This document shows, piece after piece, positions 1,675-60,300 of a DNA stretch of 64,000 nucleotides (its first letter is position 1; every line of letters begins with the position of its first letter). The position numbers and the translations under genes were made by a program. The notes under the pieces were generated by a model. That model was not told the origin of the DNA. It was given only the letters and a program-made list of their open reading frames with translations, and did no database searches. The stretch is taken from IMG/VR virus record IMGVR_UViG_3300021090_000723, positions 1 through 64,000 of that record; one strand, written 5' to 3'. Origin of the DNA: a virus.

Positions 1675-4323
1675 TCAACTCCCGTATGGGCTCGCCTTTC
1701 CGTGCTTCTCGCGCTCGGCGATCGCGGTGGCCTCGCGCATCTTCTGCTCTTCGAGTTCGTCGGCATCCGGATACAACCGGCCGAGCGGCAACGCGGTGAA
1801 TGTACCAGTTGCCTGGAGGTAGAGCATCGCCTGCGTGATGGCATCCACAGCATCATCGAATTCGATAGAGCCTTCGCCTGCAAAGGTCGTCATCTGCTCC
1901 ACCAGGGGCTCGCACCAATCGCGGAAGTGGCCCTTGCGGTGGGCGAGGCCCGACTCCGGCAGGAAGAGCATGCCCTGCTTGACCAGGGGCGAGGCCACGT
2001 GCGCGCGCATGGTCTTGGACTGGCCGTGCGGCTCGAAGGGCCAGGACGGAACGCCGAAGCGCTGGAGGGTCTGGCGCAGACTGATGCCGCTCGCCTTGTT
2101 CTCGATCAGCACGAGGTTGGGGAAGCGGCCCTGGTACTTCTTGCGGTAGGTGTCGCGCGTCTTCTCGAGTAGCTCGGGGAAGCCTAGGCGCTCCATCCAG
2201 AAGTCGCAGACCAGCGCCGCATACTTGGACCGCACGCCCATCTTCATCAGTTCGCCGGCGGTGAAGCACTGCTTGGTGTTGAAGACGCCGAGCACGATGC
2301 AGCACGAATAGTCGACCTTGCCCGTCCTGTTGTCGCGCGCCTCCTCCTCCATGGCGGTGTCCATGGTGAGCATGACCATCGAGAACTGGGGGAACGGCTT
2401 GCCCGCTGGCCACAGGCGCAGCCAGGACTTCTTGTAGATGCCGAAGTCCTCGCTATCGATGTCCTCGCCCAGGATCTCGATCTTGCCCAGCTGCGTGCCC
2501 GAGAGCGTCATCACCTCGGACAGGAAGCCGGGGCTGAGGTTCGCCAGGTTCTCGTAGGTGGTGCCGGTGACCACGATGCAGTCCGGGCGCTTGTAGAGGT
2601 TCTTCAGGTACGGGATCGGGCGTGGCGTGGTGCCGAAGACCGCCCTCGATGGCGTGCCGTCTTTGTACGGCAGGCGGACGCCGAGCATCATGTTCGAGTG
2701 CACGAATTCGAGGTTGCCCGCCGGGCGGTCCCACTCGCGGAGTTCGTCCCCGATTCCGGCGTGGCACTGCGGGCCACGGAGGCGCCCGCCCTGGTCCTTG
2801 GCGCCGAAGCCGCGGATCAGGCTCCCGTTCTTGAGCAATAGCTCGTGGTGGGTGCTGTCGTAGGCGTGCTCCCACGATTCCTTGTACAGCAGGCCAGCGG
2901 GGATGACGGATCGGAAGCCTGCGGGCCCGAGGAAGAGCGTTCCGCGCACGTCGTTCAAGGTGGGCGCGACCGCGTGCCCGATCAGGTTGGGTAGCCGCGC
3001 CATTTCGTGGCCCAGCCATTGGCACTCGGCCTCGGTGTTGTGGGTTGGGACCATCCCCATGCCAGCCAGGTACAGCTTCGATGGACTATCGACCGTGATG
3101 CATCGCACAGGCACGCTATCGATCGGGGTCACATCCGTGATGTAGCGATGGGTCTGGCGCCGCCATTGAGACCGTTTAGCCAGCTGCCGCTTTGCTTTGC
3201 GCTCAAGCCTGAAGACGGGGAAGTAGGCGGTGAAATGGATGCGCCACTTGTAGCCGCAATCCCTGCCCCGCAGCCTGGACCGGCCAGCCGTCGTGGTCGG
3301 CTTCAGCCCCAACGACCGCAGCAATTCTACAGTATGGGCCGCGAGCATTGGGTTGGTAGTTGTGAACTCGCACGTCCCGTTCTCTGCGTGCGCGTGGCCA
3401 TCCGTGTCCATCAGGCCTTGGAGCAACGCTATGCGCTGCGCGGCACTCGCCCGCAGATAATCCTGAGGGATGTGCTTGTCATCGTAGACCCCCGCTGCGC
3501 GCAGCATTTTCGTGATGGTTTCGTTACGCTCGGCCGCAAGCCTAATTCTGATGTCGAAGCATGTCCGTTGCTTGATGGTCGAGGGCCAGAAGCCAGCGAG
3601 GCGCAATTCACGTTCAAAGTGTTCAACATCCCTGGCGCCGCAGTGAAGCGTGCCGATGTCGCTATTCCCATCCCCAAGCCAAGCCCCCAGAACGTAAGGA
3701 TCGAGCGGCAAATCTTTCGCGGGCAAGCAGAGCGCCTCGGTACAGGCGATCGAATGGTTGGTTTCTTGCTTTCTTCCGACCGTTAGGGTGTCAGCGATCT
3801 GCTTGGTCGTGCGGACTTCAGCGTGGCGCCGCGGCCGGACAGCACGGCCTTGGGACTTCCGGGCCCATTTATCCCAGGTGAGCCATCCATGATCCTCGTC
3901 GGCGACTATTTCGGCGCCATCACTGAATTGCACGAGAAAGCACGGCCGATTGATCTGCACTGGCCATGCTTCGAGTACGGTGCTTATAGCGCCAGCTTCG
4001 TCGAAGACGCGATCGCCGCGCTTGAGCGCACCCATCGTGGTCCAGCCAGACGGTGTTGGGATTGGCGTTTCGAGGCAAAGCGCCTTTCCAAAACCCCTTC
4101 CGCTCTTCCAGATCAGCAGGCGCCAATCGCGCTGATCGGTGGGGACTTGCTTGCCGGCGCGCTTGCCAGCACATGCGCGCTGCGTCCAGAGTTCACTCCA
4201 GTCGATGACCGTTTTGAGATCGGCGTCCGATGCGATGCCCTGGACGCCGGCAGCGTCCATCTTGCTCGTGTAACGGCGCTGATCCTCTGCATCGCCAAGC
4301 GCGGATAGATCAATATCGATCAT
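1675..4323 (-). CDS. terL: Terminase large subunit (intein-containing)
   Basis: Walker A SGRGFGK|T split by an intein; RLRGPQ..GDE Walker B region; GTTP coupling motif; C-terminal RNase H-like nuclease (MDTA, IENKASG, FDDAVDAITQA). Confidence 0.95.
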   Translation of the reverse strand: MIDIDLSALGDAEDQRRYTSKMDAAGVQGIASDADLKTVIDWSELWTQRACAGKRAGKQVPTDQRDWRLLIWKSGRGFGKALCLETPIPTPSGWTTMGALKRGDRVFDEAGAISTVLEAWPVQINRPCFLVQFSDGAEIVADEDHGWLTWDKWARKSQGRAVRPRRHAEVRTTKQIADTLTVGRKQETNHSIACTEALCLPAKDLPLDPYVLGAWLGDGNSDIGTLHCGARDVEHFERELRLAGFWPSTIKQRTCFDIRIRLAAERNETITKMLRAAGVYDDKHIPQDYLRASAAQRIALLQGLMDTDGHAHAENGTCEFTTTNPMLAAHTVELLRSLGLKPTTTAGRSRLRGRDCGYKWRIHFTAYFPVFRLERKAKRQLAKRSQWRRQTHRYITDVTPIDSVPVRCITVDSPSKLYLAGMGMVPTHNTEAECQWLGHEMARLPNLIGHAVAPTLNDVRGTLFLGPAGFRSVIPAGLLYKESWEHAYDSTHHELLLKNGSLIRGFGAKDQGGRLRGPQCHAGIGDELREWDRPAGNLEFVHSNMMLGVRLPYKDGTPSRAVFGTTPRPIPYLKNLYKRPDCIVVTGTTYENLANLSPGFLSEVMTLSGTQLGKIEILGEDIDSEDFGIYKKSWLRLWPAGKPFPQFSMVMLTMDTAMEEEARDNRTGKVDYSCCIVLGVFNTKQCFTAGELMKMGVRSKYAALVCDFWMERLGFPELLEKTRDTYRKKYQGRFPNLVLIENKASGISLRQTLQRFGVPSWPFEPHGQSKTMRAHVASPLVKQGMLFLPESGLAHRKGHFRDWCEPLVEQMTTFAGEGSIEFDDAVDAITQAMLYLQATGTFTALPLGRLYPDADELEEQKMREATAIAEREKHGKASPYGS
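3037..4083 (-). mobile_element. Class 3 intein with LAGLIDADG homing endonuclease (349 aa) inserted in the TerL P-loop
   Basis: Starts ALCLETPIPTPSGWTTMG; block B ADEDHGW; LAGLIDADG motifs VLGAWLGDG and LLQGLMDTDG; block F VRCITV; ends PTHN followed by +1 Thr. Confidence 0.92.
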
Positions 4324-4343
4324 CGAGGATCAGGCGCACCGCT

Positions 4344-5996
4344 TCAACTCCGGGAGACGCCCGCTCCGATGCGAGCCCGATCAGCCCGGTAAGCCATACA
4401 GTTCGAGCAGTTGCAGCAGCCGACTGGATCGGGCTTGGGGAGCTTGGCGTACATGGGCCCCTTCGGACCGTTCACGAGCGCCGCACCGGGCCCGCCGTGA
4501 CCGGCCTCGATCACTGCACCAGGCCCGCCGAGGTAGACGTCTGGGTGCGCGTGGCGGTCCTCCTGCGCCGCCTTCAGTTCATCGAGGTACGCCATGCTGG
4601 GCGGCGCCATGCCCCCGATATCGCCCATCATGTGCGAGTCGACCAGCCGCTGCATGGCGTCCTTGATGATGGCCTCATACTGCGGCGACCACACTTCGAA
4701 CACATCACCAGGCTCAGCGCCCGCCAGGTCGACCTCGACCTTGATCCCGAGCAGGTTCATCAGACCCTTGGGCGCAGTACGGACAGCCACCCTGTCGCGC
4801 TTGATCTGCGCCATGGCCGTCATGAGCGCCTCCTCGGTCAGGTTGCCCTGCCCAGGCGCGACCGTGTTGGTGAAGAGGAGCGGAGGGTGCGCCGCGTTCA
4901 CGATCGCATCGAGGACCGCACGCTGCTTGGCATCGAGCGCAGCCTGGCCGCAGGCCTCCGCGATCAGCTGCTTGGTGCTCTTGCCGGAGAGCATCGCTCC
5001 AACAGCGTCGATCTGGTCGTCGAACGCCTGGTTCAGGAGGCGCGCGGCTGTGATCTCTTGCTGCTCCCGGTAGGCTTTGCGGGCGGCTTCCATCGCTTTC
5101 AGTTTGGCCTGGCGCTCTTGCTCGATGATGGCTGGGTGCACGCTCGTGTTCAGCGCCACGCCGTCGCCCATCACCGCCTGCGCAGCGGCGGTCTTGCCCA
5201 TGTTGCGCCCGCCCAGGAACACCGCCTTGCCAGGCTTCCTCTGGGGCATGAAGCGATGGCCGTCGCGCGGGTTCGTCAGGTCGGTGTAGGTCGACCAGCC
5301 GCACTCCAGGCACCGGCCCTTGTGGATGCGCGGCTCGCCATCGCCGCGGTAGACGCCCCAGCGGGTGCGGGAGAGCGAGACGAAGCCCAGCTTGCCGCAC
5401 TGGATGCAGAGTTCGTCGCCCACCCGGCCATTGCAGACGCGCCGGTCAAGCTCCGCGATGTCCGTGTAGCTCAGCCCGCAGCGTTTGCAGCTGTCGGTCA
5501 AGCCGTCGTACTCGTGCCCGGCGCGGATGAGCCAGCCGTCCATCGTGAAATGGCGGCTCCCGCGCGACCGCGCTTGCGGGTCCTTCGCGTAGTCCTCGGC
5601 CCACTCGCGGTATTTCGCCTTGTCCTCGTCCGAGTCCGACAGCATCGGGTGGTGGTAGAGCGTGTTTGTCGGCGCCCGCCCATCGAGCACGGCCATTCGG
5701 TTGCGCAGATCCGCATAGGCGAAAACCGCCGGCTGATGGCTCGGTGGGGTGTGGTCGAGATTGATCTCGATCTCTTCGAGCGCGTCCTCGCTCAGGTCGC
5801 GGTCATCTTCGAGCACGTACACGCACGAGGCGAGCTCCTCGAAGTCGTAGACCATGGCGGTTGGCAGATAGTCGGGCATGTCCGCCAAGGCCTCGGCCCG
5901 CACGGTCGGCATCGCCATGTCCCGCTCGATCTCGCGTTGGATCATGCGCATGCGCGCGTTGATGTCCTGGAATTCGTAGATGGCTGCGGTGGTCAA
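4344..5996 (-). CDS. 550-aa mosaic hypothetical protein with Zn-finger-like CxxC pairs, a lone P-loop and capsid/portal-like fragments
   Basis: Long ORF with genome-typical codon use, overlapping the upstream stop; motifs GGRNMGKT, GDGVALNTSVHP, AARLLNQAF, AAHPPLLF, NLTEEAL. Confidence 0.8.
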   Translation of the reverse strand: MTTAAIYEFQDINARMRMIQREIERDMAMPTVRAEALADMPDYLPTAMVYDFEELASCVYVLEDDRDLSEDALEEIEINLDHTPPSHQPAVFAYADLRNRMAVLDGRAPTNTLYHHPMLSDSDEDKAKYREWAEDYAKDPQARSRGSRHFTMDGWLIRAGHEYDGLTDSCKRCGLSYTDIAELDRRVCNGRVGDELCIQCGKLGFVSLSRTRWGVYRGDGEPRIHKGRCLECGWSTYTDLTNPRDGHRFMPQRKPGKAVFLGGRNMGKTAAAQAVMGDGVALNTSVHPAIIEQERQAKLKAMEAARKAYREQQEITAARLLNQAFDDQIDAVGAMLSGKSTKQLIAEACGQAALDAKQRAVLDAIVNAAHPPLLFTNTVAPGQGNLTEEALMTAMAQIKRDRVAVRTAPKGLMNLLGIKVEVDLAGAEPGDVFEVWSPQYEAIIKDAMQRLVDSHMMGDIGGMAPPSMAYLDELKAAQEDRHAHPDVYLGGPGAVIEAGHGGPGAALVNGPKGPMYAKLPKPDPVGCCNCSNCMAYRADRARIGAGVSRS

Positions 5997-6340
5997 CGGC
6001 GTGCCCTCCTGCGGTCTTCGGCTTGCGGTGCCGTCGGATGATACAGGAACTTGCCCGTGCGTTCACGCTCGTCCGGCCGAGTGTTCCCAACATTCTTGCG
6101 GCCGTGGAAATCGTTGCGGCGCTCACCCCTCGACGGGAAGCTGTTGCCCTTGATCCTCCGGCGCTCGCGGCGCTGGAGCGGTGGACCCTTCGGGTGCGTC
6201 TGCTTTGCGCGGCGCTCGGCCTCGATCGTGATGTAGCCCGGCGCGCCAGCGAAGCGCGTGTCGATCATTTCGCGGATATCGGCCATGTTGTGGCCCTCGC
6301 GGGCCATGCGCCAGGCGTGCATCACGACGTTGTTCGCCAT
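5993..6340 (-). CDS. Hypothetical basic protein
   Basis: GGAGG RBS upstream; coupled to neighbouring ORFs. Confidence 0.6.
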   Translation of the reverse strand: MANNVVMHAWRMAREGHNMADIREMIDTRFAGAPGYITIEAERRAKQTHPKGPPLQRRERRRIKGNSFPSRGERRNDFHGRKNVGNTRPDERERTGKFLYHPTAPQAEDRRRARR

Positions 6341-6540
6341 CAGGTTTCCTCCCTCTTGAAGATGCACTCGCAAGCGGCCGAGCCCCCGAGCCCGTCGTTT
6401 GGATCGACAATCTGGCGCTGGGCCACCAGTTCCCAGCCCATCGAGCCGTACTGGTTCAGGGTGTCCTGAAGCGACGAATAGCGCGAAAGGGTGGGCACGA
6501 CCACCGGCAGGACCAGGTATGTCCAGTGCTTGCCGCTCAC
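6340..6540 (-). CDS. DUF4177-like small protein
   Basis: W.Y.V...LQDTLNQYGSMGWELV...IFKRE pattern. Confidence 0.6.
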   Translation of the reverse strand: MSGKHWTYLVLPVVVPTLSRYSSLQDTLNQYGSMGWELVAQRQIVDPNDGLGGSAACECIFKREET

Positions 6541-6932
6541 GCCTTCGCCTTCAGGTGCTTGATGAGCGCGGCCTTGGTCATCGTGTGGCAGCGGATGCGC
6601 AGGCGAGGCGGGTCGTAGACGATCGTCGGGTATTTGCGCCAAACGACCACGTCATCGCCCTTGGTGCGCTGGCCCTCGAACCACTTCAGCGCGATAGCGC
6701 AGGCCTTGGCCAGGTCCAAGCGGGGCGGTGGCGGCTGGCCATCGGGGCTCGGGACGCCATCGATCAGCAGCAGGTACACGGTCTTGTCGAACTGCGAGTA
6801 GGCGCCGGGGAAGCCCAGGATCTGCGTCGGGAAGAGCGCGCGTATGTCGTTGTCGAGCATGGCGATCAGCGCCCCGGGCTCGATCTTCGGCGGGGGCGTG
6901 GGCTTGGGCTTCTTCTTGCGGACGGTGGTCAT
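6537..6932 (-). CDS. Hypothetical protein
   Basis: Coupled ORF starting MTTVRKKKP. Confidence 0.55.
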   Translation of the reverse strand: MTTVRKKKPKPTPPPKIEPGALIAMLDNDIRALFPTQILGFPGAYSQFDKTVYLLLIDGVPSPDGQPPPPRLDLAKACAIALKWFEGQRTKGDDVVVWRKYPTIVYDPPRLRIRCHTMTKAALIKHLKAKA

Positions 6933-7279
6933 GACTTGCCCCTCGGCACGGTGGCCTGGTCCGGCTCTTCGCCTTGGCCGCGGCCGCCGGCAGCGCGCAA
7001 GCCCTTCAGGTCCATGGCAGGCCCGGCGCGCTCGCCGCTCCCGAAGATCGGTATCTTGGCGGTCGCCATCGGGTGCTCGAAGCAATAGTGCTGCGGGAGC
7101 ACGACAGGGAAGATGGTCTGGAAGAGCGGGCGTTGCACGTTCGTGAGGCGGTCCCGCTCAGCGCCCACGATCACGGTGACGGGCGGGTGCGCTCGGCACT
7201 GGCCGCCGTTCTCCGGCTTGGTGGGCTGGTCTGGGTGGAACTTGTCGCACGTGGTGCAGTCGAAGTCTGGTCGAGCCAT
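6929..7279 (-). CDS. Four-Cys phage protein (CxxC...CR.xPP...FP...C.EH)
   Basis: CTTC, GQCRAHPP, FPVVLPQHYCFEH; similar to 44931-45248. Confidence 0.65.
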   Translation of the reverse strand: MARPDFDCTTCDKFHPDQPTKPENGGQCRAHPPVTVIVGAERDRLTNVQRPLFQTIFPVVLPQHYCFEHPMATAKIPIFGSGERAGPAMDLKGLRAAGGRGQGEEPDQATVPRGKS

Positions 7280-7336: not shown

Positions 7337-8493
7337 CTACGAGCGCGGGGCTGGCTTTTCGTCATCGTCTCGGGCGGCCATCAGTTCGCGGAAGGCCCTC
7401 ACGTCATCGGTCCGCACGTCCATGCCCTTGGCGGTGATCGACCAGACCAGGCGCTTGCTCCCTCGGGGCCCATCGATCATGCGGTACTCGATCAGGCCCG
7501 CATCGCGGAGCGTGTCCCAGTCCTCCGGCCAGCCCCACTCGCACTCGGCCTTGCCGATCGACAGGCCGCTCTCGTGGACGAAGCCTTCCGACTTCGCGCC
7601 GTTGAACAGCCCGGCAAAGCAGCCCCTGACGCGCACCGATTGCTTGGCGATCTCGTTGGCAGGACGAGCGGCCATGCTGTCGCGCACGGCCTGCTCCAAT
7701 GGTCCTGGCTCGCTCATCGCTTGGTGACCTCGATGTTGACGGTGGTGCAGATGGAATCGCCCTGATGCTTGGCCCACAGCTGCTCGATCGCGTTGTCCGT
7801 CACGCCGGCGAGCGTCAGCAGGTTCTTCTCCGCGATCAGCCAGTTCACGATGGCCCCACGCCTGGTGTCGCACACGGTGTTGACCAGGATATCCCCGTAC
7901 TCGACCACGGCCCAGCCGGTCTTGGGGCTCATCAGCCCATCCTCGAATAGCGCCACCACAGGGCCCAATCCCTCACGGTCCACCGGCGTTGGCAGTAGGC
8001 GCAGCCGCACAGGCGCTTCGGCGTCAGGCGCAGACGATGATCGGTCATACCAGGTCTCCCAATGGAACGTGCTCGACGTAGGCGCCCTTGGAGCGCCAGA
8101 CCGCCTTGCAGCTGTTGCATGTCAGCGCGGAATAGTCGCTCGGCGTTTGGTGGCCGCCGCTGAACTTTGAGTGGTTGCAGCGGTATTGCCACACGATCCA
8201 GCGCCGTTGCTCAAGCGGCTTCTTGCTCTCCGGACACCGGCAATAGCCCCCGCTGCTCATTGGAGGTCGAACCCATGGCGCTCGGCGATGCGGCGCACCC
8301 GGCGATCATCGGCGTATGTCGACTTGTGCTCCTGGAACCAAAGCCCCACGCCCTGCTCGTACATATCCCCCGCCTTGGCCTTGGTCGGATCGCGCATAAG
8401 CTCCTCGCGCTGCGAGTCCAGGTCCACCTGGTCCTGAAGCTCCGCGATCGTCTCCAGGTACTCGAAGTCCCGCCGCGCGGTCGCGTACCTCAT
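7337..8493 (-). other. Cluster of small hypothetical genes (7337-7717, 7714-7932, 7932-8048, 8045-8260, 8257-8493)
   Basis: Chain of ATGA/TGATG-coupled ORFs. Confidence 0.6.
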
Positions 8494-9176
8494 GTGCCCC
8501 CCGGCTTGACCACCGGCGCCGGCAGCTTGGCGAAAATCGGTTTGCCGCCCGCCATCGCGTTGTCCCGGACGATCTTCAGCAGCGCCTTGAACGTCCGTTG
8601 CTTCGCCTCGTCCTCCTCAGGCGTGATCTGGGGCGGAGGCTCGGGCTCGATCTTGCGCCGCCACCTGTTCGGGTCGCGGTTGTGGAGGAAGAGCGCAATC
8701 GCGCCGACCTCCGCGGGGATGTGCTCCTCGAACGGCACGATGACCGGCACCTGCCTGCGCGTGATGATGCGCTGGCCTCGCCCGTTGACCGTCTCCTTCG
8801 TCTCCGTCCCAAGGAATATCTTCACCGCCGTCACGCTGTAGCCCATCGCCCGCTGGACGAGGGAAGCCTCGATCACCTCGTTCACCTGCTCCTTCGTGCG
8901 CGTGACCGCCTGAAGAAACTCTGGGTGCGCGTGCTTCCAGGTGATGAACGTGCGGTGGGTGACGCCGATGATCTGGGCGATTTGCTCGTCGGTCAGCTTC
9001 AGCTTGATGCCCGCCTTTGCCATGGCTGGGATGCCCTGGTGGTACTTGGTCGAGCGTCCGCCTGGGTGGAGGCCGTTGGAGCGTGGCGGGCTGGTTGGGG
9101 CCTTGAAGACGACGCGCTTTGGCGGCACTCGCCTTGCCCGCTTCTTCGGCGCTGGCTTGGGCTTCTTCTTGGCCAT
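8490..9176 (-). CDS. terS: Terminase small subunit-like HTH protein
   Basis: GRSTKY...LTDEQIAQIIGVTHRTFITWKHAHPEF...SLVQRAMGY...FLHNRDPNRWR is typical of TerS; lies upstream of terL. Confidence 0.75.
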   Translation of the reverse strand: MAKKKPKPAPKKRARRVPPKRVVFKAPTSPPRSNGLHPGGRSTKYHQGIPAMAKAGIKLKLTDEQIAQIIGVTHRTFITWKHAHPEFLQAVTRTKEQVNEVIEASLVQRAMGYSVTAVKIFLGTETKETVNGRGQRIITRRQVPVIVPFEEHIPAEVGAIALFLHNRDPNRWRRKIEPEPPPQITPEEDEAKQRTFKALLKIVRDNAMAGGKPIFAKLPAPVVKPGGT

Positions 9177-48285: not shown

Positions 48286-48381
48286 ATGGCGATGCGCCTG
48301 TACGATTATTGCGTGTGGCTCGTGTTCGGGGGACCGCTTCTTCTCGCGATCCTGGTCGGCCTCATCAAGGTCTTCGCCTAG
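48286..48381 (+). CDS. 31-aa hydrophobic peptide antisense to the late operon
   Basis: MAMRLYDYCVWLVFGGPLLLAILVGLIKVFA; single TM; overlaps the last codons of the giant gene. Confidence 0.4.
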   Translation: MAMRLYDYCVWLVFGGPLLLAILVGLIKVFA

Positions 48382-51300
48382 TCCGCTCCAGATATTCGGC
48401 GTTGAACATGCGGATGATACGTTCTTCCGCCTCGTTCAAGATCCGCACCTGCTCGTTGTAGCGCGGCCTCGCCATCCTGCCCTGCTCCAACGCCATCTTC
48501 GCCTGAGCGCGCGATGCCCTGATCTCGGACAGTTCCGTCCTGGCGTTGTTCGCGTCGTTGTAGAGCGAGAGCATTGCCCGATTCTCCTGGACGAAGCCAC
48601 GAGCCTCAGGTCTCCGGCCCTCGCGCTGGTAGTCCCTGGCATAGGCGCGCGACTGCTCGATCTTGTTGATCCGCTCGTAGAACGTCGCCTTGTCGATCCA
48701 GGGCGGCTTGGATGTGACGACGCGGCGCACGAAGGGGATGTCGTTGAACGTGATCGTGCTGGTCGGGTCGGCAAACTTCATGGGCAGATCGAGGAAGTTG
48801 CGCTCGTAGAACGTGCCTGCGGCGCCCCAGGCCACGCCGAACCCATAGTCCAGCCACTCGGGCGAAATCTCGATCAGTCCGGGCTCGACACCCGTTCCGC
48901 CCGAGGCCGTGCTCAGGAAGTCTGTGACCGCTTTGTAGGCGGGCGAGACCGAATTCCAATAGCGCTGGCTGTTCGGGACCTGTGGGCCGTACTGGGACTG
49001 CTCCGGCGCGATCGGCCGCCCGGCATAGTCCTTGTTCATGAAGAGATCGACGACCGGGTCCATGGTGGTGGGCGCGATCATGTTGAGCAGGTTCTGCGCG
49101 CCGCCAACCGGGTTGAACGAGTCCATGATGGTGATCGCGAGGTTGCCGGCCGACTCCAGCGGGTCCTTGCCACGCATAACCTCGGCGATCGAGCGGCCGA
49201 CGCCGTAGAAGATGTTGTAGCCGTAGGGCAGCGGGATCTTCGCCGCCACTCCGCCCTCGCTCGGCGTCATGACGATCAGGTTCCGGCTCTTATCGAACGG
49301 CGTCACCTTGTCGTAGAGCAGCTGGCCGTCATCGTCCTCATCGCTGACAAAGGCGTTGAGGAAGTCCAGCAGGAAGCCGGTCAGCACCGCGAACGCTGCA
49401 ACCTTGCGCACGCGCGGGGACTTCCAGGCGGTGAGCAACGTCGCGGTGCCTTGGATGCTCGCGTTATAGAACAGGTAGAGGCTGTTCATCAGCGGGCCCC
49501 ACGAGCCGCGGCGGTTGAAGTTCACCGTCAGGTTCTTGGCGAGAGACGCCGCCTTCGCCGGGGTGAAGCCACGCTCGCGCGCGTTCTTGTAGGCCGAGAG
49601 ACGGATGGCGTTTTCCACCCCGATGTTCGTGTTCTCGATGATGCGGCCGAGCGTCTTCATCGCCATGATCGGGTTGAGCTTGGACGTGCCGATCTCCCGC
49701 ATCTGACCGTCCAGGCGCTTCCGTAGCTCGAGCACGTCTTCCATCTGGTTGAAGTAGACGCGCCCGCCGTTCTCGCGGAACTCCTGGGCCCAACGGTCCC
49801 ACTCGGCCTGGTCCTTCGCCATCCACGGCATCAGGGTTTTGCCCGGCTCCGCCTTGAACGCGCTGCGGCTCGATGCCACCAGCGCCTTGCGGTAGTCCTT
49901 CACCGTTCCCTTGGTGATGCCCTTGATGTCGCCGTGCGCCTGGATGTTCGAGAGCGCGGTCTGCGCATCGCGGAAGGCGTTCGTGATGACGAACTCCGGG
50001 TTGAGCGTCGTGTTCACGTGGCTGAGAATCCGGTTGATCGCGCCAAAATTCCGGATCAGCAGGCTGATCTGATCCTGCCCCAGGCCCTTCAGGCCCTGGG
50101 CGAGATCGCGCGCGACCGGGTTGTTGCGGTTGAACGTGATGCGATGCTCTTGCCCGTCGATCTTGGTGGACAACGTGTACGGAGCATCTTCGGCGAGGAT
50201 GCGCCGGACCGGCCAGTATTGGACCTCCTGGCGGGCCTTGATCCACACCGGCCGCATCGCGACCTTGTCGACCTTCCAGAAGTTCTCGTTGGGCGCGGCC
50301 TTCGCCAGTTCGTAGATCGCGTTGCCGATACGATTGTTCTCTCCACGGATGATCGCTTCCTCGGCCTGCATGAACGCATAGGCCAGGATGTCACGCGCTG
50401 GCGACTGACGGCCGAAGGCACGGTGCGATTCCTTGCCCTTGACGTCGAAGCCCTTGCCCGGGCGCGGGCGGTCGGCCTCGACCTCAGGGTCCAGTTCGGC
50501 CACGCCGCGCAGCGGGACATAGTCGCGATAGGTGGCGCGCCAGGCCTCGGCCTGCTCTTCCGACATAAGACCCGCTTCGACGCGCGTGTTCAGCGCGAAG
50601 GCCAGGACGTCGTCGACCATGCCTGCCAGGGCGTCGAAGTCCGCGCGCCGGCCGGTCTTATCGACCTCGTCCATGATGCCGCGCGCATCTTCATCGCTCA
50701 TGCCCGAGCCAGCGATGCCCTCTTCCCGGAACTTCGGGTTGATCTCATTGATCCGCGCGTTGCGTTCCGGCGCGTGCCGGGCATAGAGGAACGTCTCAAG
50801 CTCTTCCCGGCTGATGCCGCGCTCGTGCATGGCGAGCACAAGCGGCCGGATTTGGCGCTCGAACAGATCCTCCAGCTTCGCGCCCTTGCGGCCGGACGAC
50901 AGTTCCTCGGCCAGATAGGCGTTCTCTTCCTCCGTGAGCGGACGACCCAGCATCTGCTCGATCGCCGCCTGCATGCGCGCGACCTTGAGATAGCGGTCCT
51001 GGAAGCCCACGCGCCACTTGTCGAACGACGCATTGATGGCGGAGAGCGAAGCGGCGCCCTTCAGCCGCTCCATCAGGGAGAGGTTCGAGTTGCGGAGATA
51101 GTCCACCACGCTCGGCTGCGGGGAGTCGGTGAACATCGTGAAGGCGTTCGCGCCGGGTGGCATGCGGCGGGCGAACAGGCCCTGGCCCTCCATCACGGAC
51201 TCGCGCATGGCAGGCGTCACGTCGAGCGAGTGCACGTCGATCACGCCCTGCTTCTTCTGTGGGTGGGTCTCGGCCACGGTCCACGACGGCTCCGATTCCT

Positions 51301-54300
51301 TGCCGGTGTCGATCTTGGTGGTCCCGACCTTCGCGTCCCACTTCTTGGCGTACCGGTTCAGGAACTGGGGCACGATCCTGTCGTAGAAGCCCTTCATGCC
51401 CTCGCCGCCGACGGTCAGGTCGAGGCCGGAGATTTCACGCACGCGCACACCAAGTCCGGCTGACCGCCCCTCTACTGGTGTTACAGCCAACAGCTTATCG
51501 GCAAGCTCCGCTCCGACCAGTTCCGCCAAGTCATCGCGCGACTCGATCTGACGATTGATGGCCTCCTCATTGCGCTTCCCGTAGGCAATGAGGTGCCCAC
51601 GTTCGAATGGCCCGTCCATCCGCGGGCGCCCAATCCCGCCGCTGACGTTGTCTGTCAGCCGGAGGCTGTTGACGTGCTTGGCAAGATTGTACCGCTCAGC
51701 CTGCTGCGCACCGGTCGTCCAGGCGAGGCGGTCGTAGCCGTTCTCGGCGGCGTAGCGCAGCATCCGCTTGAGGGCGATCTCGTGCCAGGTCGACTTGAAC
51801 GGCGCGTCCGGGACGCCGGTGCGCTTCTCGATCGCCTCGCCTTCCTTGATCGTCCAATTCGTCGTGTCCATCGGCGCTTGATCGTCACGATTCCACGCCG
51901 GCCGCCGCCCATGCTTATCGCGGATGAATTCCTGCGCCTGGTCCAGCGTCGGTCGAGTGCCTACCAGTTCGCCTTGATCGTCGAAGATTGAAAAGACCGG
52001 CGAACGGGTTTCCTTGACGCTATAGCCCTGGCGTCTGCCCTTCTGATGCCAATCGCTCTGGATCTCCTCGATGAAGAGCACCCTCTTGCCGTCGGCGTCT
52101 GCGCGATCCTTGAAGCGCACATGGGCCAGGATATTCGCCTCATCGAAGTGACCTGAGCGGAACTGGCCGCTGAGCGCATCGATCGCGAGGCTCCTGTCGC
52201 CGGGATACCGGCGCCGCATGACATCGATCCAATGCGCGTCGTTTGGGCCCTCGTATTTTTTCGTGACGCTATTGAGCACGATCGGGTCATCCCAGGTCCC
52301 AACCTTATGGTCGCCGTAGAAGACCGTGACGTCGCCCTGGGTGGTCGACCGACGATTGCGCTCGATGCGGACCTTGGCCGGGTCGAAGGGCACGCCGATC
52401 TGCGGCAGCGTCAGCAGCAGTTCGCGGTAGTTCTCGCCGCCAGGGAGGGTTTGGGACTCAAACTTGGTGGCGCCGCCCTCGGCGACGATCCCGGCATCAC
52501 GATGGATCGCTTCACGCGCTTCGATGAAGTCCCCGAAGTCGCCCAACTCTCGACCAGCCCGGATGGCATTTACGCGAGTAACCACTCCGCGCTGGTCGTA
52601 ATGGAACGTGACGCTAGCATCGTCAGCGTCAAAGGCCATTTCCGAATAATACCGTTGACCCTCAGGTTGGATGGTCCTTTCTTCATCGGGGAGCCAATCC
52701 TCGATATTCTCCGGATAGGGTCCCTCATCGTCGCCAGGCGCGCGGCCCTTCTCGACCTCCTCGATCTGGACGTTGTTCTCGCGGATGAAGTCGAGCAGCG
52801 CCTGCTTCGTGACCGGTCCCTGCTGGGACTCGAGCCATTCGTTCACGCCGGTCCACTCGGTCTCGTCCTTCGTGATGCCGCGCGCGTTCTTGATGAAGGC
52901 CTGCCACTGGATGCCCGACGCCTTCTCCTGCTTGGAGGCCTCGATCGTGCGCGCGAGCGTCGAGAAGAACGGCGCCGGCGGCTGTGGCTTCAGGGCGAAC
53001 TTCGCCTCGGACCTGGTGGGCCCGGCCTTGCCGCGCTTGCCGATCCTGCCGGACTCGATGCGCTTGAAGATGTCCTCTGGCGTCTGGAAGCCGCGGCCGC
53101 GGAAGAAGTTGCGCAGGCCCTCGAAGAAATTGCGCACGCGCTGGAGAACCTTTGTCGCCAGGCCTGCCTTCGCGAATTCGTTGCTAGGCTCATAGTTCTG
53201 CGCCGCGAACGCGATCGTTTCCTCGGTCTGGACGTCGGGCTTGTAGTATTTGCCGACGATATCGAACGTCCGTTTCCACTTGTCTTTTGCGGCCGCTTCG
53301 AGTGTGGCCCACTCTGACTTGGTGAAGAAGCCGAGATTGCGCAGGCCGTGGATGACCTCATGCGTGATGGTGCCGAACGGGTCCTTGGTATCGAGCGCAA
53401 TGGTGATGAGGTTTTTTGTGATGTCGAAGTGGCCGTCGGCCTCGTGGCCCTCAGGGTCCGCAATCGCATCGGCCACGCGCACGGCGAGCGGAAGGTTGCG
53501 ATTGACCAGATAGGCGCGGAGATCGGCGGCCAGCTGCTCGCGCTTCGCCTCGAACTCGGGGCTGAATGTGAAGGTGACGCCGTCGCCGGTCTCGATGACC
53601 GGTGGCGCCTGCGGGAGCCTTAGTCTTTCAAGGCCTCTTCCAACGCCTTCTGGGCGCGCGCCCTCGCCTGCTCCACCTCTGGGCTCGACGGCAAGTCCTT
53701 GGTCCTCGCCAAGAATCTCCGCAATGCCATCGGCGAACTGAGTGGGGGCGGTTCCTCGATCAGATACATTGACGACTCCAATCGCTTTCAGCGGCGAGGC
53801 GATGGCCTCGGCCCCGGCTTGCGCCATCGTATCGAACGTGGCCGCAAGGCTTTCCGGAACAACAACGGATGAACGGTAATCGATGAGGCCGGCGCGCGCT
53901 AGACCCACCGCGAAGTTATGGCTGAAGTTGGCGACGGCGAGGTTGCGATCGAGGCCCCGCTCGCGGATCAGCGAACGGCCGACGCGGCCCTGGGCGTTCT
54001 GCGATTCTTGCAGCATCTTGTTCAGGATGTCGGAGGGGCTGGACCACAGCGTCAGGTCCAGATCGGCGAAGGCCCGGCGCGTCTCGGGGGTGAGACGGGC
54101 GGCGTGCCACTGCCCCTCCGTGGTGTGGGCGATCATCCAGTCCAAGCCAGGGAGATCCAGCAACGTCAGGTCTGCGAAGGACAGGCCGTATGGCATCGTG
54201 TGGTTATGGTGGAACACGATCCGCGCATCTGGCTTGCTGAGCGCATCCTCGATCTTGCCCCGGAGGTTCACATATGTGTCCTTGCCGGAGGTCTCCGCCG

Positions 54301-57300
54301 CGATGACCGTCTGGGTGGCCGGGTCGTAGGCCACGGCCGCTTCGGTCTTGGTGCGCTCACCGAAGGCGCGGAGCCAGTCGCCGATCGCCACGTTCACGGC
54401 TGCTGGCGTCTTGGCCTTCTTCTTCGCGACGAATTTCCCGAGGTCGTCGGCCAGGTCCGAATTGCCCTCCACGATCCGGCGCGCGAGCATGCCCTCGTCC
54501 CTCGGCGGCCGGGCGGGCGGCGCCAAGCCCAGGCCTTCGCCAGGCGCCTCGCTCAGGATGAAGCCGGCGGAGCGGCGCGGCGGGAGGTCCGGCTCGGGCG
54601 CCCCGGCCACGGGCTGGGGATCGGCCTCGATGAGGCCAAGCGCCTGGTCGATCTTGCGCTGACGCTTCAGCGCCGCCTGGTATTGGTCCTCGCGCTCGAA
54701 CGGGACCTTGACCAGTTCCTTGAAGTCCACGAGCTTCTTCTTCGCCGTGTCGATCTTGGCCTGGCGATAGTCGATCTCGCCTGGGCGGCTCTTGAAGAAG
54801 TTCTCGATGCGGCTGATGGCGCCCAACTTGAGCGACTGGAGATCGAGCTCCACCTTGTCGGTCATCTTGCCGTGGATCACGGCCTGCGGCTGGTAGTAGC
54901 CGTCGACCTCAACCGAGATCGGGAAGCCGTACATCTTGCCGATCGGGATGTCCTCGATCTCGGCGTTGCGCTTCCGGCCCTGGGCCTCGTTCTTGGACTT
55001 CTGGAGGTTCCAGGCCTTCTCGATGATGTCGGCCAGCGCCTTGGACGCATCGACGCGCTTCTCATAGACCGTGCCCAGGATGGTGTAGTGCGGCTTGTCC
55101 TTGCGTTCGAGGTAGGCGGCGTGGTCGGCTTTGACCCGCCCGCGCGCCTCTTCCATCCCGGCGATCTCGCCCGGCAGGCGGTGGATCTGCCACTCCATTT
55201 CGTGGATGTTGTCGTAGTGCGCACCGCGCAGGCGCGAGAGACGATCGACGTCCGAGTCCGCCTTCGCCTTGTCCAGGATCAGCGGGTTGCCCGCGGCGAG
55301 GGCCTTGGCCTCGGCGAACGACAGCACCTGCTCATCGATGTCTTCGGCCTCGCGGACCGAGGGATCGCCGCGCTTGATCTGGTTGATGAAGCGGGCCTTG
55401 CGCTCGACGGTCTGCCACATATAGGCGTCGAACGATCCTTCGGTGACGTAGCGGAAGAGGTCGATCTCTTCGTTCGTGTTGCCCTGACGCTCGATGCGGC
55501 CCTCGCGCTGCTCGATGTCCGATGGGCGCCACGAGGGGTCGACGTGGTGGAGCGCCTTCAGGCGGTCCTGCACGTTCGTGCCGATGCCCATCTTCTCGGT
55601 CGAGCCCAGCAGGATGCGCTTGCGGCCGGCGCGCACGTCGGCGAAGAGGTTCGCCTTCTTCTGATCGGTGTTGGCGTCCTGGACGAACGCGACATCGTTC
55701 GCGTTCACGCCCTTCTTGACCAGTTCCTCCTTGATGTCGCGATAGATGCTGTAGGCCACGTTCGACGGGACCGACATATCGCAGAAGATGATCTGGGTGT
55801 GCTTTTCCTTGGCGCCCGCCTTGTAGATGCGCGCCGCGTTGCTCGCGACCTCGGAGGCCTTCCGGACCTTTTCCTTCCTCGCGGCCGGGTCCACCACACG
55901 CAGATCGAGCGATGCCTTGCGGCCGTCGGTCGAGATCAGCAGCATGTTGTCTTCGTCGGGCGTCACCTCGCGCTTGCGGACCGCCTCGGCGCGCTCGCCG
56001 ATCTCCGCGATGTAGGCCTTGAGCGCATCGCTCGCGGGCACGATGATGGTCTTGGGCCCGCCGCCGCTGATCTTCGGGAGCTTCACCTGGCCGGTCGCGA
56101 TCAGGTCGTCCTTGCTCACCAGGTCCGAGAACTGCCGGTACATCGAGATCAGTTCGGGGATGTTGCGGAAGCGCGCGAAGCGGGTCTTCAGCATCGCCTT
56201 TCCGCCCTCGGGCGTGATCTCGGCTTGCGTGACGGTGTCGCCGAAGGTCGAGGCCCAGGCGTCGAAGTGCGAGAGGCCGCGCTCGGCCAGCCCGCGCGGC
56301 TGGAGATAGCGCTGCATCGTGTACATTTCGGCCATCGAGTTCGAGATCGGCGTGCCGGTCATGAACATGAGGCCGCGGCCCGGCGTCATCTTGTCGATGT
56401 ACTTGGTCTTCAAATAGAGATCGAACGCCCGCTGGCTCGACGGCGGGTTCATGTTCGTGATCTTCGTCGCGAATTCCAGGTTCTTGAACAGGTGGGCTTC
56501 ATCGACAAAGATGCCGTCGACCCCCATTTCCTCGAACGACAGGCCCCGGTCCTTGTCCTTGGCCTGCATCAGTTCGCGGAGCTTTTCCTCACGGCGCTTC
56601 TTCGCGGCTTCCAGCTGCTTGACCGTCGGGCTGCGGCCCCCGGTGTCGGTCTCGCGCGCGGCACGGATCAGGTCCGCATATTCGGCGATCTCGTCGCGGA
56701 TATAGTCAGCCTGGAACTTGGCCGACATGCCGACGCGCTCGAAACTGGAGTGCGTCATGATGATCGCGTCCCAGTTTCCGGCCGCCGCACGGGCGACGAA
56801 GCGACGGCGATTGTCGCCAGCGAAGGCGCGCTCGTCCGCCACCAGGATGCTGGCGTTCGGGTACAGCTGCATGAACTCGCGGCTGAACTGCTCCAGCATG
56901 TGGTTCGGGACGGAGAACAGCGGCTTGCTCAGCAGGCCTATGCGCTTGGCCTCCATGGCGGCCGCGATGGCCGTGAACGTCTTGCCGGCGCCCACCAGGT
57001 GGTCGAGCAGCGTGTTGCCCGAGACCAGGTAGCGCCAGACGGCCTTCTTCTGGGTGGAGCGCAGTTCGATCGTGCTGCTGGAGCCAGGAAGCGTCAGGTG
57101 ATCGCCGTTGAAGGTGGCGACCCGGAGGTTGTTGAAGTTGTCGTTGTAGAAGCGGGACAGCCGCGCACCGCGCTCTGGGTCCTTCCAGATCCACTTGGAG
57201 AAGCGCTCCTTGATGTCGTTCTGCTTTTCCTGCGCCACGATGGTGGCGTTCATGTCCGTGTGGGTCTTGCCCTCGGAGTCCTGCCAGGAAATGACGGTCG

Positions 57301-60300
57301 ACTTCTGGTTAAGCGCATCGCGGATGAGGTCGATGCCGCGGCGCGCGATCGACTTGCCCTCGGCGCGCGAGGTCGTCCAGTTGACCGACCAGGTCTGGGT
57401 GTTGGGCGCGGTGCCCTCCTGGGCAATGCGCACGTGCCAGGTCGCTTCCTTCGGCACGTATTCAACGATGGCCTCGGTCTCGAGCAGTTCGGAAATGAAC
57501 CCCTCGACGTCCGAGTTGGGAATCCACGGCGTGCCCATGCGCACCGCGATCTGAGACGGCTTCAGATCGACTGGCTGGACGACTTCGAGCGCCTTGACGT
57601 TCTCGGCCCACTCGGGCTCGCCCTTGGCAGCGTCACGCGCGAAGGCCAACTTTCCGCGCACGTTGCCCGAGAGATAGACCTCGGACGGCTCGTAGGCGCC
57701 GGTCGCCGGGTTCTTGAAGATGCGGCCCTTGAGTTCGTTGAGGAACGTGCTCGGCTGACGGCCCAGGATTTTTGCCATGTAGGGCACGTCGACTATGCCC
57801 TTCATGTTCATGGACGCGATCAGCGCCTCGTCCGGCGTGTTCACGCGGAGGATTTCGCGCGTCGGCTCGACCACGCGATCGGTGAAGATCGGGCCTTTGA
57901 TGCCCTCGTTCTTCTCTTCATCGAAGCGCTCGAGCGCGGAGACCAGCGCCGCGTCCGGATCGTCACGGAACGCCAGCATGTTCGGGTAGCGGCGGTATTC
58001 GCGCACCTCACCGTCCGGCATCGTGCGCCGGCTGATCTGAACCTGGTTGATGTAGCCGAACGCCTTGACGAACTGGGCGTAGAGTTTCCCCAGTTCCTTC
58101 TGCGGCGCGACCCACGGGGCCGTGCCCTTGCCTTCCCACTCGCCGCGCTGCGCGGTCAAGATCTCGCGGGCCTTGTCGCGGAGCCTGATGAGCAGGCGCA
58201 CGCGCCCGGCCTGGCCGTCGGAGAGTTCGACCGGCACGGAGGATTGCAGCACGCGCTGGAACAGCTTGCCGTCACGTTCGAAGAAGGCGTTGTCCTTCAC
58301 CGTGTCGGGCGGCGGCGCCAGGTCATCGTATGTGTCCACGTCCCCGGCCTCGGGATCGAAGCGGAGCGCGGACTTCTCCATCATGGCCTGGACGGCATTG
58401 GCGATCTTCTCGCGCAGGCCCGTTGCCGTTCCGGTAACGGTGTATTCGTCCTCGCGGTACATGCCGCGCGTGACGGCGTTCGTCCCCAGGATCATGTTGG
58501 GGTTGTCTTTGAAATACTGATTGACCGTCGCCGGGCTCGTGCCGACGCGGAACTCCTTGGCCTCCAGCCAATCCGGCTTCCCGGCAGGCTCGCCCTCCTT
58601 CCGCTTACGGATGAACAGGATGTCCGTGACGACTTGGGTCCCGGCGTTCTCCTTGAAGGCGGTGTTGGGGAGACGGATGGCGCCGATCAGGTCGCCGCCG
58701 GCGTCCCGGATCATGGTGCGCGCGGTCTTGTCCTGCGAGTCCATCGTGTAGCGGCTGGTCACGAGCGCAAGCACGCCGCCAGGTTTGACCAGCTTCAGGC
58801 TCTTGAAGATGAAGTAGTTGTGCAGGCTGAGCGGGCGGCCCTTATTGTACATCTTGTCGGCCGGGCGAATGTCGCCGAACGGCACGTTGCCGATGACAAG
58901 GTCCACGCTGTCTTCCGGAAGCGCGGTGTCCTCGAAGCCCTGCACGAAGATGCGCGCCTCGGGGTAGAGCGCTCGCGCGATCTTGCCGGTGACGTCGTCA
59001 AGCTCCACGCCGATGAACTTCGGATCGCTGCCCTTCGGGCGCATGCCCATGAAGTTGCCGATGCCCATGCCGGGTTCGAGCACGTTGCCCGAGCCGGTGA
59101 AGCCGAGTTCGGTCACGCCGTCCCAGATGCCGCGAACCACATCCTGGCTGGTGTAGTGCGCGTTGATGGTGGTCGCGCGAGCCGACGCGAACTGCTCCGG
59201 CGTCAGCATGGCCTTCAGCTGCTCGCGGTAGGGGATCAGGCCGTAGTCGAGCCCGCGGCCCTCATCGAAGATCTTGGCGAGGCCCGTGGCGCCCCAGCCC
59301 ACGTAATGGGCAAGCTGCTCCTGGTCCTCACGGCTGGCGAGTTGCCCGCCCTTCTCCAGGTCGAGAGCGACCCGGATGGCTTCGATGTTCTTGACGATGC
59401 GCTGGGCTGGACTGCCGGTGGCATAATCGGCGTCTTCAGCGATGCGGAAGTTTAGTCCTCGTATCCCCCGCTTGGCCCGATCCCCGAGGCTTCCCTCTCG
59501 CTCATCGGGAGATACTCCCTCAGGGCGTCCGACTCCGCCATCAGGAGGGCGCTCCGCTCCAGCTTGATCCGTCTCTCCAGAGGCTCGTCCTGGCTCACTT
59601 GCGGAAGTTGGCTGTTGACCCAGTTCGCTATCGATTCCGATAGGTCCTGGACCCTCTGCTCCAGCTTCCCCTCCGCCTTCAGGCCCGCGAACTCCTGTGG
59701 TCGGTGCACCCGCAGGTGCCCTTCCACCTTGCTCCGGTAGCTTTCCGGGCTGACCTTTTGCACGTTTTTCCCTTTCGAGCTCGGCCCAGCGCTTCGGAAT
59801 ATCGATCTTTTTGAGCGCTTCTTCAACTGCCTGCTTGGAGTCGGGCAGCGGCGTGTAGGTCTTTTCCTTGAGCGATCCGTCCTCGTTCCACTCCAGCTGG
59901 TCGAGCAGGCCGCGCCACATCAGGGCGAAATTGGCGCGCTCTTCCTCGGCGGGATAGGGCGTGCCGCGATAGCCGGCTTCCTTGGTCGTCTGGCCTTCCG
60001 CCACCCAGCCATTGACCAGGTAGGGCGAGGTCTGCCCCTTGGCGGCCAGTTCATCGTAGATGAAGGACTCGAACGAGCGCGCCCACAGTTCCTCGGGCCG
60101 CACCCAGTATTTGCCAAGCTCTTGGGCGTTGCGCTTGAACTTGGTCGTGAGCTTCGCGCTCCACCCCTCGTTCTGCCAAAGGTGGTCCACGTACTGCTCG
60201 GCGGTCTTGAGCGGGCCCAGGCCTTGCCTGCCCCGGATGTGCGACCGGCCGGTGAGCAGATTGTCGACCATCTTGATCGCACCCTCCACGTCCCAGGTGT

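Follow-up and report, generated by a model that had tools for sequence, protein, structure and literature searches.

The window analysed here is a 64,000-nt stretch of viral DNA, the first 64 kb of the 104,903-bp IMG/VR record IMGVR_UViG_3300021090_000723. Our subject is P0002, an open reading frame (ORF) of 550 residues on the minus strand, whose stop codon lies 20 nt from terL, the gene for the terminase large subunit (TerL) and the next gene downstream (Table 1). P0002 is a real gene in the late-gene interval of the phage: its guanine-plus-cytosine (GC) content by codon position (0.67/0.46/0.86) is a coding pattern for a genome of 64% GC, and the genes around it are all on the minus strand, co-oriented with the late genes. 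A plus-strand frame of 603 codons starting with ATG (4230-6041) was rejected as an antisense shadow of P0002, typical of high-GC DNA; it fails the test comparing GC at third and second codon positions (GC3/GC2). A first-pass annotation, made from the letters alone, had described P0002 as a protein with no coherent fold, built from scrambled terminase, portal and capsid motifs and perhaps titrating or jamming bacterial immune receptors such as those of the Avs or CapRel type. It placed the ORF directly upstream of terL correctly, and all the peptide strings that it quoted are present in the minus-strand frame.

A predicted zinc-binding core in a very small protein family

Searched exhaustively with phmmer, a set of 1.84 billion representatives yielded six homologues of P0002, versus more than 6000 for the capsid protein. 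The following residues are invariant in all seven sequences, which share 25-50% identity: A90, F92, A102, G106, H161, C170, C173, C188, G190, E195, C197, C200, G201, C229 and C232. The core formed by one His and seven Cys is the sole feature universal to the family, and self-comparison shows its two CxxCG-strand halves to be alike. We read this invariant set, with its paired CxxC knuckles, as a putative two-zinc ribbon. The weak sequence and fold matches of the core, too, are to zinc ribbons only (RPA12, S27e and NrdR), all insignificant (E of at least 0.066; Foldseek E of at least 0.4 and Z of at most 3.2). Like the zinc ribbons of TFIIS, Rpb9 and RPA12 (C-terminal), NrdR (N-terminal) and ribosomal S27e, the core has paired CxxC knuckles, on predicted short beta-hairpins; unlike them, it has an eight-ligand H-C2-C-C2-C2 pattern and flanking motifs that belong to no described family. 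The first-pass annotation overlooked this core, and its statement that P0002 has no coherent fold was not confirmed: the low AlphaFold confidence accompanies an alignment of seven rows, and the models justify neither that statement nor the assignment of a definite fold.

Outside the core, family members differ in the combination and order of short conserved motifs, the family set being AAIFEF.DINARMR, DLSEDALE.IEI, AVF...I.NR.A.L.G.APS, DGVALN...HP, CxCxxC knuckles and VWSP.YEA. Self-comparison also pairs N-terminal repeats (residues 1-12 with 44-55 in P0002, residues 5-22 with 88-105 in the homologue P0004), each weak alone. Of the capsid-like motifs considered below, P0004 keeps only DGVALN..HP and DLSEDALE.

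P0002 had no match by megablast and tblastn in 50,697 phage records, and no family match in Pfam, PHROGs or NCBIfam; the ESM Atlas gave nothing above 0.80. Word-indexed protein searches returned P0004 alone, and scans of viral, genome and metagenome contigs for relatives returned only the contig of P0004. With the PADLOC defence profiles, no family was hit by five family members at E <= 0.1, and the PHROGs scan of P0002 gave no anti-defence family, no dedicated anti-defence library having been searched.

Gene context was read for P0002 and P0004, the remaining homologues (P0005-P0009) being on short contigs. P0004, the closest homologue (384 residues, on a 55-kb IMG/VR contig), is likewise encoded directly upstream of terL. 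The two proteins are 48% identical over the first 325 residues and then continue into unrelated tails; in the same two phages the capsid protein is 99% identical, TerL 90%, the portal protein 89% and the terminase small subunit (TerS) 72%. In the Caulobacter phage RW, terS abuts terL with no gene between them, and in phage L007 (whose contig, a fragment, is 34% complete and includes no capsid gene) the space between terS and terL is taken up by other small ORFs over about 5 kb, the P0002 family being absent. Judged from these comparisons, P0002 belongs to a very small and modular family of accessory proteins of phages, which evolves fast. The slot between terS and terL is variable, and in most phages that have this capsid family the gene does not occur; it is therefore dispensable for packaging and assembly.

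Capsid-like motifs of P0002 and its relatives

The motif DGVALNxxxHP of the P0002 family reproduces almost exactly the best-conserved strand of the Mu-gpT-like major capsid protein of this phage group. In P0002 the copy pairs with GDGVSLVSTAHP of the phage's own capsid protein, and in P0006 it takes the form DGVALNSMAHPI, identical at 10 of 12 positions to the commonest capsid form, DGVALNSASHPI. The pattern DG[VILA][ASG][LFIVM]x(2-6)HP was found in the six frames of the 105-kb genome only in P0002 and in the capsid gene. Scanning IMG/VR at the DNA level for DGVALNxxxHP (as DGVA[LF]N...HP) gave more than 120 stretches; among the 80 that were fetched, the ORF bearing the motif was a capsid protein of the phage's own capsid family in 79. 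A pairwise hhalign comparison of the signature strand gave P = 0.017.

Besides this strand, the tail of P0002 holds two further capsid-like helices. Residues 311-326 pair with ETKETLTANILNRAFN of the capsid protein, and positions 114-135 of a capsid-family hidden Markov model (HMM), built from 13 diverse capsid proteins, align to P0002 residues 307-328. HMM positions 163-186 align to the DLSEDALEEIEI-type motif of P0004 and P0007, a place where diverse capsids read DLSETSLEQ or DLSEAALEQ. The region of the family-wide motif AVF..ADLRNRMAVLDGRAPTNTLYHHP is weakly like capsid AVLSQTSLEQMLIQVRGAVD in P0005, P0008 and P0009.

The sum of the three best ungapped segments between P0002 and its own capsid protein is 114, versus a shuffle mean of 87.3 (standard deviation 7.0), with 5 of 3000 shuffles reaching 114; the reversed capsid scores 87, and of the 43 proteins of the phage compared in this way the capsid comes out on top (z 4.7, the next 2.9). 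Against the capsid HMM P0002 scores 7.6 bits, rank 1 of 210 non-capsid targets, followed by P0004 with 3.5 and by noise of up to 1.9 bits; 1 of 2000 shuffles reached the score of P0002. The motifs which the first-pass annotation had likened to those of Mu gpT-like capsids are therefore borne out, at the level of motifs and against the phage's own capsid gene, and their order does differ from that of the capsid. The capsid motifs stood above shuffled, reversed and real-protein controls. In Pfam scans, 41-161-residue windows of P0002 hit no structural family, and none matched a capsid-family profile at E <= 10.

Three short motifs of the P0002 family recur in P0134, an ORF in the terS-terL interval of L007: a CxxC..HAPG knuckle, DGVSLTTVPHP and ALETVEI. 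P0134 matches P0005 over the DGV motif (BLASTP E = 3e-4) and was not detected as a homologue.

Taken together, P0002 shares with the Mu-gpT-like/Phage_capsid_4 capsids (PF10124, PF25209) the signature strand (G)DGV[AS]L....HP, the ..A..LLN.AF helix end and the DLSE.[AS]LE...I-type helix, which fall on invariant columns of the capsid family. It differs from them in having no HMM or profile-profile match, in its permuted motifs with a zinc domain between them, in its length (550 versus 304 residues) and in that no HK97-like fold is predicted. We give roughly one half to the capsid likeness being biologically meaningful.

Terminase and portal resemblances

HMMs for TerL and the portal protein were built from the proteins of this phage and its relatives. 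P0002 scores -0.8 bits with the TerL model (rank 8) and -2.7 bits with the portal model (rank 28), both within the noise of 210 real and reversed control sequences. BLAST scores of P0002 against its own TerL and portal were matched by 18 and 25 of 60 shuffles, respectively, and no terminase was found with Pfam and PHROGs. The segment KQRAVLDAIVNAAHPPLLF, likened in the first-pass annotation to part of a podovirus portal, gave no portal signal with the Pfam windows or the portal HMM. The terminase-like P-loop that had been called the lone one of the protein, GGRNMGKT, is indeed present, but there is a second match to the same pattern, GAMLSGKS, and strings of the type GxxxxGK[ST] turn up in 3.2% of P0002 shuffles. 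The first string is not conserved: P0004 has unrelated residues at that place and all the other members lack it. In the AlphaFold model of P0002 the stretch around it is unstructured. The P-loop of the phage's own TerL reads SGRGFGKA. By these measures P0002 has no terminase or portal likeness. Of the three resemblances the one to the capsid alone has survived, and the description of P0002 as a concatemer that mimics all three proteins is, in that form, wrong.

A 6.5-bit match of another minus-strand ORF (6537-7085) to the portal profile, at the C-terminal tail of the portal protein, was rejected as an Arg/Pro low-complexity artefact in a probably untranslated 5' extension. The first approximately 50 codons of this ORF, as listed, are Arg/Pro-rich and of low complexity, and an internal ATG (MTTVRKKKPKP...) is its probable start.

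Interpretation of P0002

The explanation that we favour, at a little less than an even chance, is that P0002, a member of a modular family, acts as an accessory protein with a zinc ribbon, is encoded in a variable late-gene interval and displays a capsid-like peptide. The zinc core would serve as a rigid binding scaffold and the short motifs as contact peptides, engaging a partner by which the same part of the capsid is recognised; this partner might be a host sensor, a chaperone or protease, or the capsid protein. A further proposal is that a class of accessory proteins of the terS-terL interval displays short copies of the best-conserved strand and helices of the capsid protein on a zinc-ribbon scaffold to engage a capsid-reading factor of one of these kinds, the proteins being decoys if that factor is a host immune sensor; this we regard as unlikely. 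If true, a non-structural gene would mimic a virion protein of its own phage at the level of peptides. A functional DGVALN..HP copy, 12 residues long and carried by a small zinc scaffold, would offer a handle on how capsids are recognised by immunity, chaperones and the assembly pathway. We know of no phage protein that copies a capsid peptide to interfere with capsid sensing, and our literature searches turned up no capsid-peptide mimic.

Several observations weigh against a zinc-ribbon protein that displays a capsid-like peptide. Zinc binding is predicted from the spacing of His and Cys only, the binding partner is putative, and the predicted local distance difference test (pLDDT) score of AlphaFold2 is low (45.6 for full-length P0002 and 55.7 for the core, from the seven-row alignment). 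The similarity to the capsid is tiny, amounting to 7.6 bits in two 22-residue pieces with an hhalign probability of 2.7%, and the parallel test with the portal profile gave noise of 6.5 bits from low complexity. The order of the motifs is unlike that of the capsid, with GDGV standing before the ..LLNQAF helix and DLSE 200 residues upstream; of its three capsid-like segments, P0002 has two to itself, P0004 being without them, and in P0007, P0008 and P0009 the capsid signal is slight or missing. Since the scan from which the finding was selected was very large, chance alone could have left a survivor with a per-test p near 1e-3. At the DNA level, P0002 and capsid genes are alike over no more than the approximately 21 nt encoding GDGVALN, in targets preselected by that very pattern, which makes the comparison uninformative; with no extended similarity, there is no sign of a recent capture of a capsid gene fragment. 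Co-folding of the capsid protein with P0002 residues 265-460 (score 0.00) gave no verdict and weighs neither way.

Alternatively, the resemblance may be fortuitous and P0002 a zinc-ribbon accessory protein with motifs unrelated to the capsid, acting for example in nucleic-acid binding or host takeover. Standard homology tests (Pfam, hhalign) are negative, 3 of 60 shuffles do better than P0002 in BLAST with the capsid and 1 of 2000 with the HMM, the motifs are permuted and only partly conserved, the likeness in DNA ends after about 21 nt, and a scan over many windows brings a look-elsewhere effect. What makes coincidence harder to accept is that the capsid is first among the phage's proteins and P0002 first among the non-capsid targets, that elsewhere the exact pattern of 11 residues marks capsid genes almost without exception, and that this pattern is kept in family members of 26-50% overall identity and recurs in an unrelated small ORF in the same slot of L007. 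We treat chance as a real but less likely explanation. If it is correct, P0002 is one more uncharacterised zinc-ribbon family in a variable late slot, and a caution that motif mosaics seen by eye need controls. A role in packaging, as a zinc-finger DNA-binding protein or nuclease cofactor of the terminase, would agree with the position immediately upstream of terL in two phages and with the core, where an invariant His in a predicted beta-hairpin is followed by a CxxC and a helix in a zinc-ribbon-like arrangement. HNH proteins are reportedly encoded beside terminase genes in many phages, as Kala et al. are said to have described in PNAS in 2014, and P0002 resembles these in having a Cys-rich, His-containing small domain beside terL. 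It differs from them in having neither an HNH match nor an H-N-H pattern and in not being conserved across related phages. No HNH or other nuclease family was found in Pfam, PHROGs or NCBIfam; there is no conserved Asn or second His, the only invariant polar residues other than Cys are H161 and E195, and all eight invariant His and Cys would be needed for two zinc sites. An HNH-like nuclease is thus unlikely because no catalytic pattern is conserved, and a core packaging role is unlikely because almost all relatives, including the Caulobacter phage RW and L007, are without the gene; overall, we consider a packaging factor improbable. A free-standing homing-endonuclease gene was also considered, and dropped for want of any nuclease motif.

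Few triggers of bacterial anti-phage systems are as common as capsid proteins, and P0002 might be a decoy for the capsid alone, its peptides, presented late in infection, occupying a host capsid sensor without activating it. The capsid-motif signal is in line with this, as are the fast evolution, modular tails and patchy distribution expected of arms-race genes, and the variable accessory interval co-oriented with the late genes. Known sensors of capsid, terminase and portal, however, mostly read folded surfaces rather than 12-residue strands; the strand that is copied belongs to the conserved core of the capsid fold, where it may be buried, no solved relative of the capsid protein having been found; and a copy of a trigger might activate a sensor rather than block it. 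We give the decoy a small probability. Structural proteins are documented triggers, and an inhibitor that competes with a trigger is known, namely DSAD1, a non-structural phage protein that counteracts DSR2, a defence protein sensing the tail tube (PMC11087589). DSAD1 is the nearest documented analogue of a protein occupying a virion-protein sensor; it is unrelated in sequence to P0002 and is not known to copy trigger motifs. The claim in its full original form, in which terminase, portal and capsid trigger mimics are concatenated in P0002 and jam several immune receptors, can point to GGRNMGKT, which is like the GGRxxGK[ST] common in terminases, to the second GxxxxGKS and to the capsid motifs. 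It is contradicted by the unconserved P-loop, by the different reading of the phage's own P-loop, by the negative TerL and portal scores and by the empty Pfam windows; it is largely refuted for terminase and portal, and we give it almost no credence.

Features of the locus and genome context

Table 1 Positions of P0002, its motifs, and related or neighbouring features (window coordinates unless another record or the genome is named).
Feature	Residues	Position	Strand	Remarks
ORF P0002, 550 aa	1-550	4344-5996	minus	TTG start, TGA stop; N-terminus aligns from residue 1 with homologue P0004
Shine-Dalgarno-like AGGAGG		6005-6010	minus	8 nt before the P0002 TTG start (AGGAGG-N8-TTG), read from the sequence
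N-terminal motif AAIYEFQDINARMR	4-17	5946-5987	minus	conserved in P0004 and P0005; weaker repeats at residues 44-55 and 90-106
DLSEDALEEIEI motif	67-78	5763-5798	minus	like capsid A-domain helix DLSE.SLE...I; conserved in P0004 and P0007
Family-wide motif AVF..ADLRNRMAVLDGRAPTNTLYHHP	90-117	5646-5729	minus	A90, F92, A102, G106 invariant in 7 members
Predicted zinc-binding core	~155-254	5235-5534	minus	H161, CxxC 170/173, C188, CxxC 197/200, CxxC 229/232, invariant in 7 sequences
Walker-A-like GGRNMGKT	262-269	5190-5213	minus	fits GxxxxGK[ST]; stretch with pLDDT < 50
Capsid signature strand copy GDGVALNTSVHP	277-288	5133-5168	minus	conserved in P0004, P0005 and P0006
EQQEITAARLLNQAFD	311-326	5019-5066	minus	like end of capsid spine helix (..TANILNRAF); ungapped score 36 versus capsid 119-134
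Second Walker-A-like string GAMLSGKS	333-340	4977-5000	minus	private to P0002
Segment weakly like capsid 162-210	331-379	4860-5006	minus	ungapped score 37; includes GAMLSGKS and KQRAVLDAIVNAAHPPLLF
Tail module LLGIKVEV...VWSPQYEAIIKDAMQR		4617-4784	minus	common to P0002 and P0007 only; alignment and pattern search
C-terminal Cys cluster GCCNCSNC		4398-4415	minus	similar CxCxxC knuckles elsewhere in P0005, P0007 and P0008
terL, 882 aa, with LAGLIDADG intein		1675-4323	minus	PHROG terminase large subunit E = 2.9e-41; Pfam LAGLIDADG_3, Hom_end, Terminase_6C
terS		8490-9176	minus	phrog_309 E = 9.6e-30
Portal		genome 97990-100698		across the record ends, outside the window
Major capsid protein, 304 aa		genome 89296-90339		outside the window; true start Met44; Pfam Phage_capsid_4 and Mu-like_gpT
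ORF P0134, 190 aa, L007 terS-terL interval		L007:2533-3105	plus	CPRCQRAHAPGQH, ADGVSLTTVPHPKG, AALETVEITL; without zinc core

The gap of approximately 2.5 kb between terS and P0002 is filled by small ORFs with no assigned function. The ends of the record (genome 1-245 and 104659-104903) carry the same 245-bp sequence save for 2 mismatches, which is either a terminal repeat or the circular assembly of a mixed population. The source DNA is from freshwater sediment, and sequencing runs of a second freshwater-sediment sample contain the P0002 ORF without differences; an identical 244-nt contig (5074-5317) in a metatranscriptome library is not proof of transcription. The closest cultured phages by capsid similarity are the Caulobacter phages RW, GB2A, RLK and KcrB (76% identity). 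In the Caulobacter phage RW (MK929790.1, L008 in our set), terL is annotated at 2445-5247 as two coding sequences (222 and 480 residues) split by a gene for an S-adenosylmethionine (SAM)-dependent methyltransferase, and the head module of this phage includes a phage-encoded GroES. The intein in the terL of the window (approximately 345 residues, LAGLIDADG/Hom_end) lies two residues past the Walker A lysine (GRGFGKAL|CLETP...THN|TEAE), and the TerL of a related contig (L005), 90% identical, has no intein. Finally, the ORF scan showed that window positions 48365-64000, continuing to genome position 65665, carry on the minus strand a single open frame of approximately 5766 residues with a coding GC pattern.

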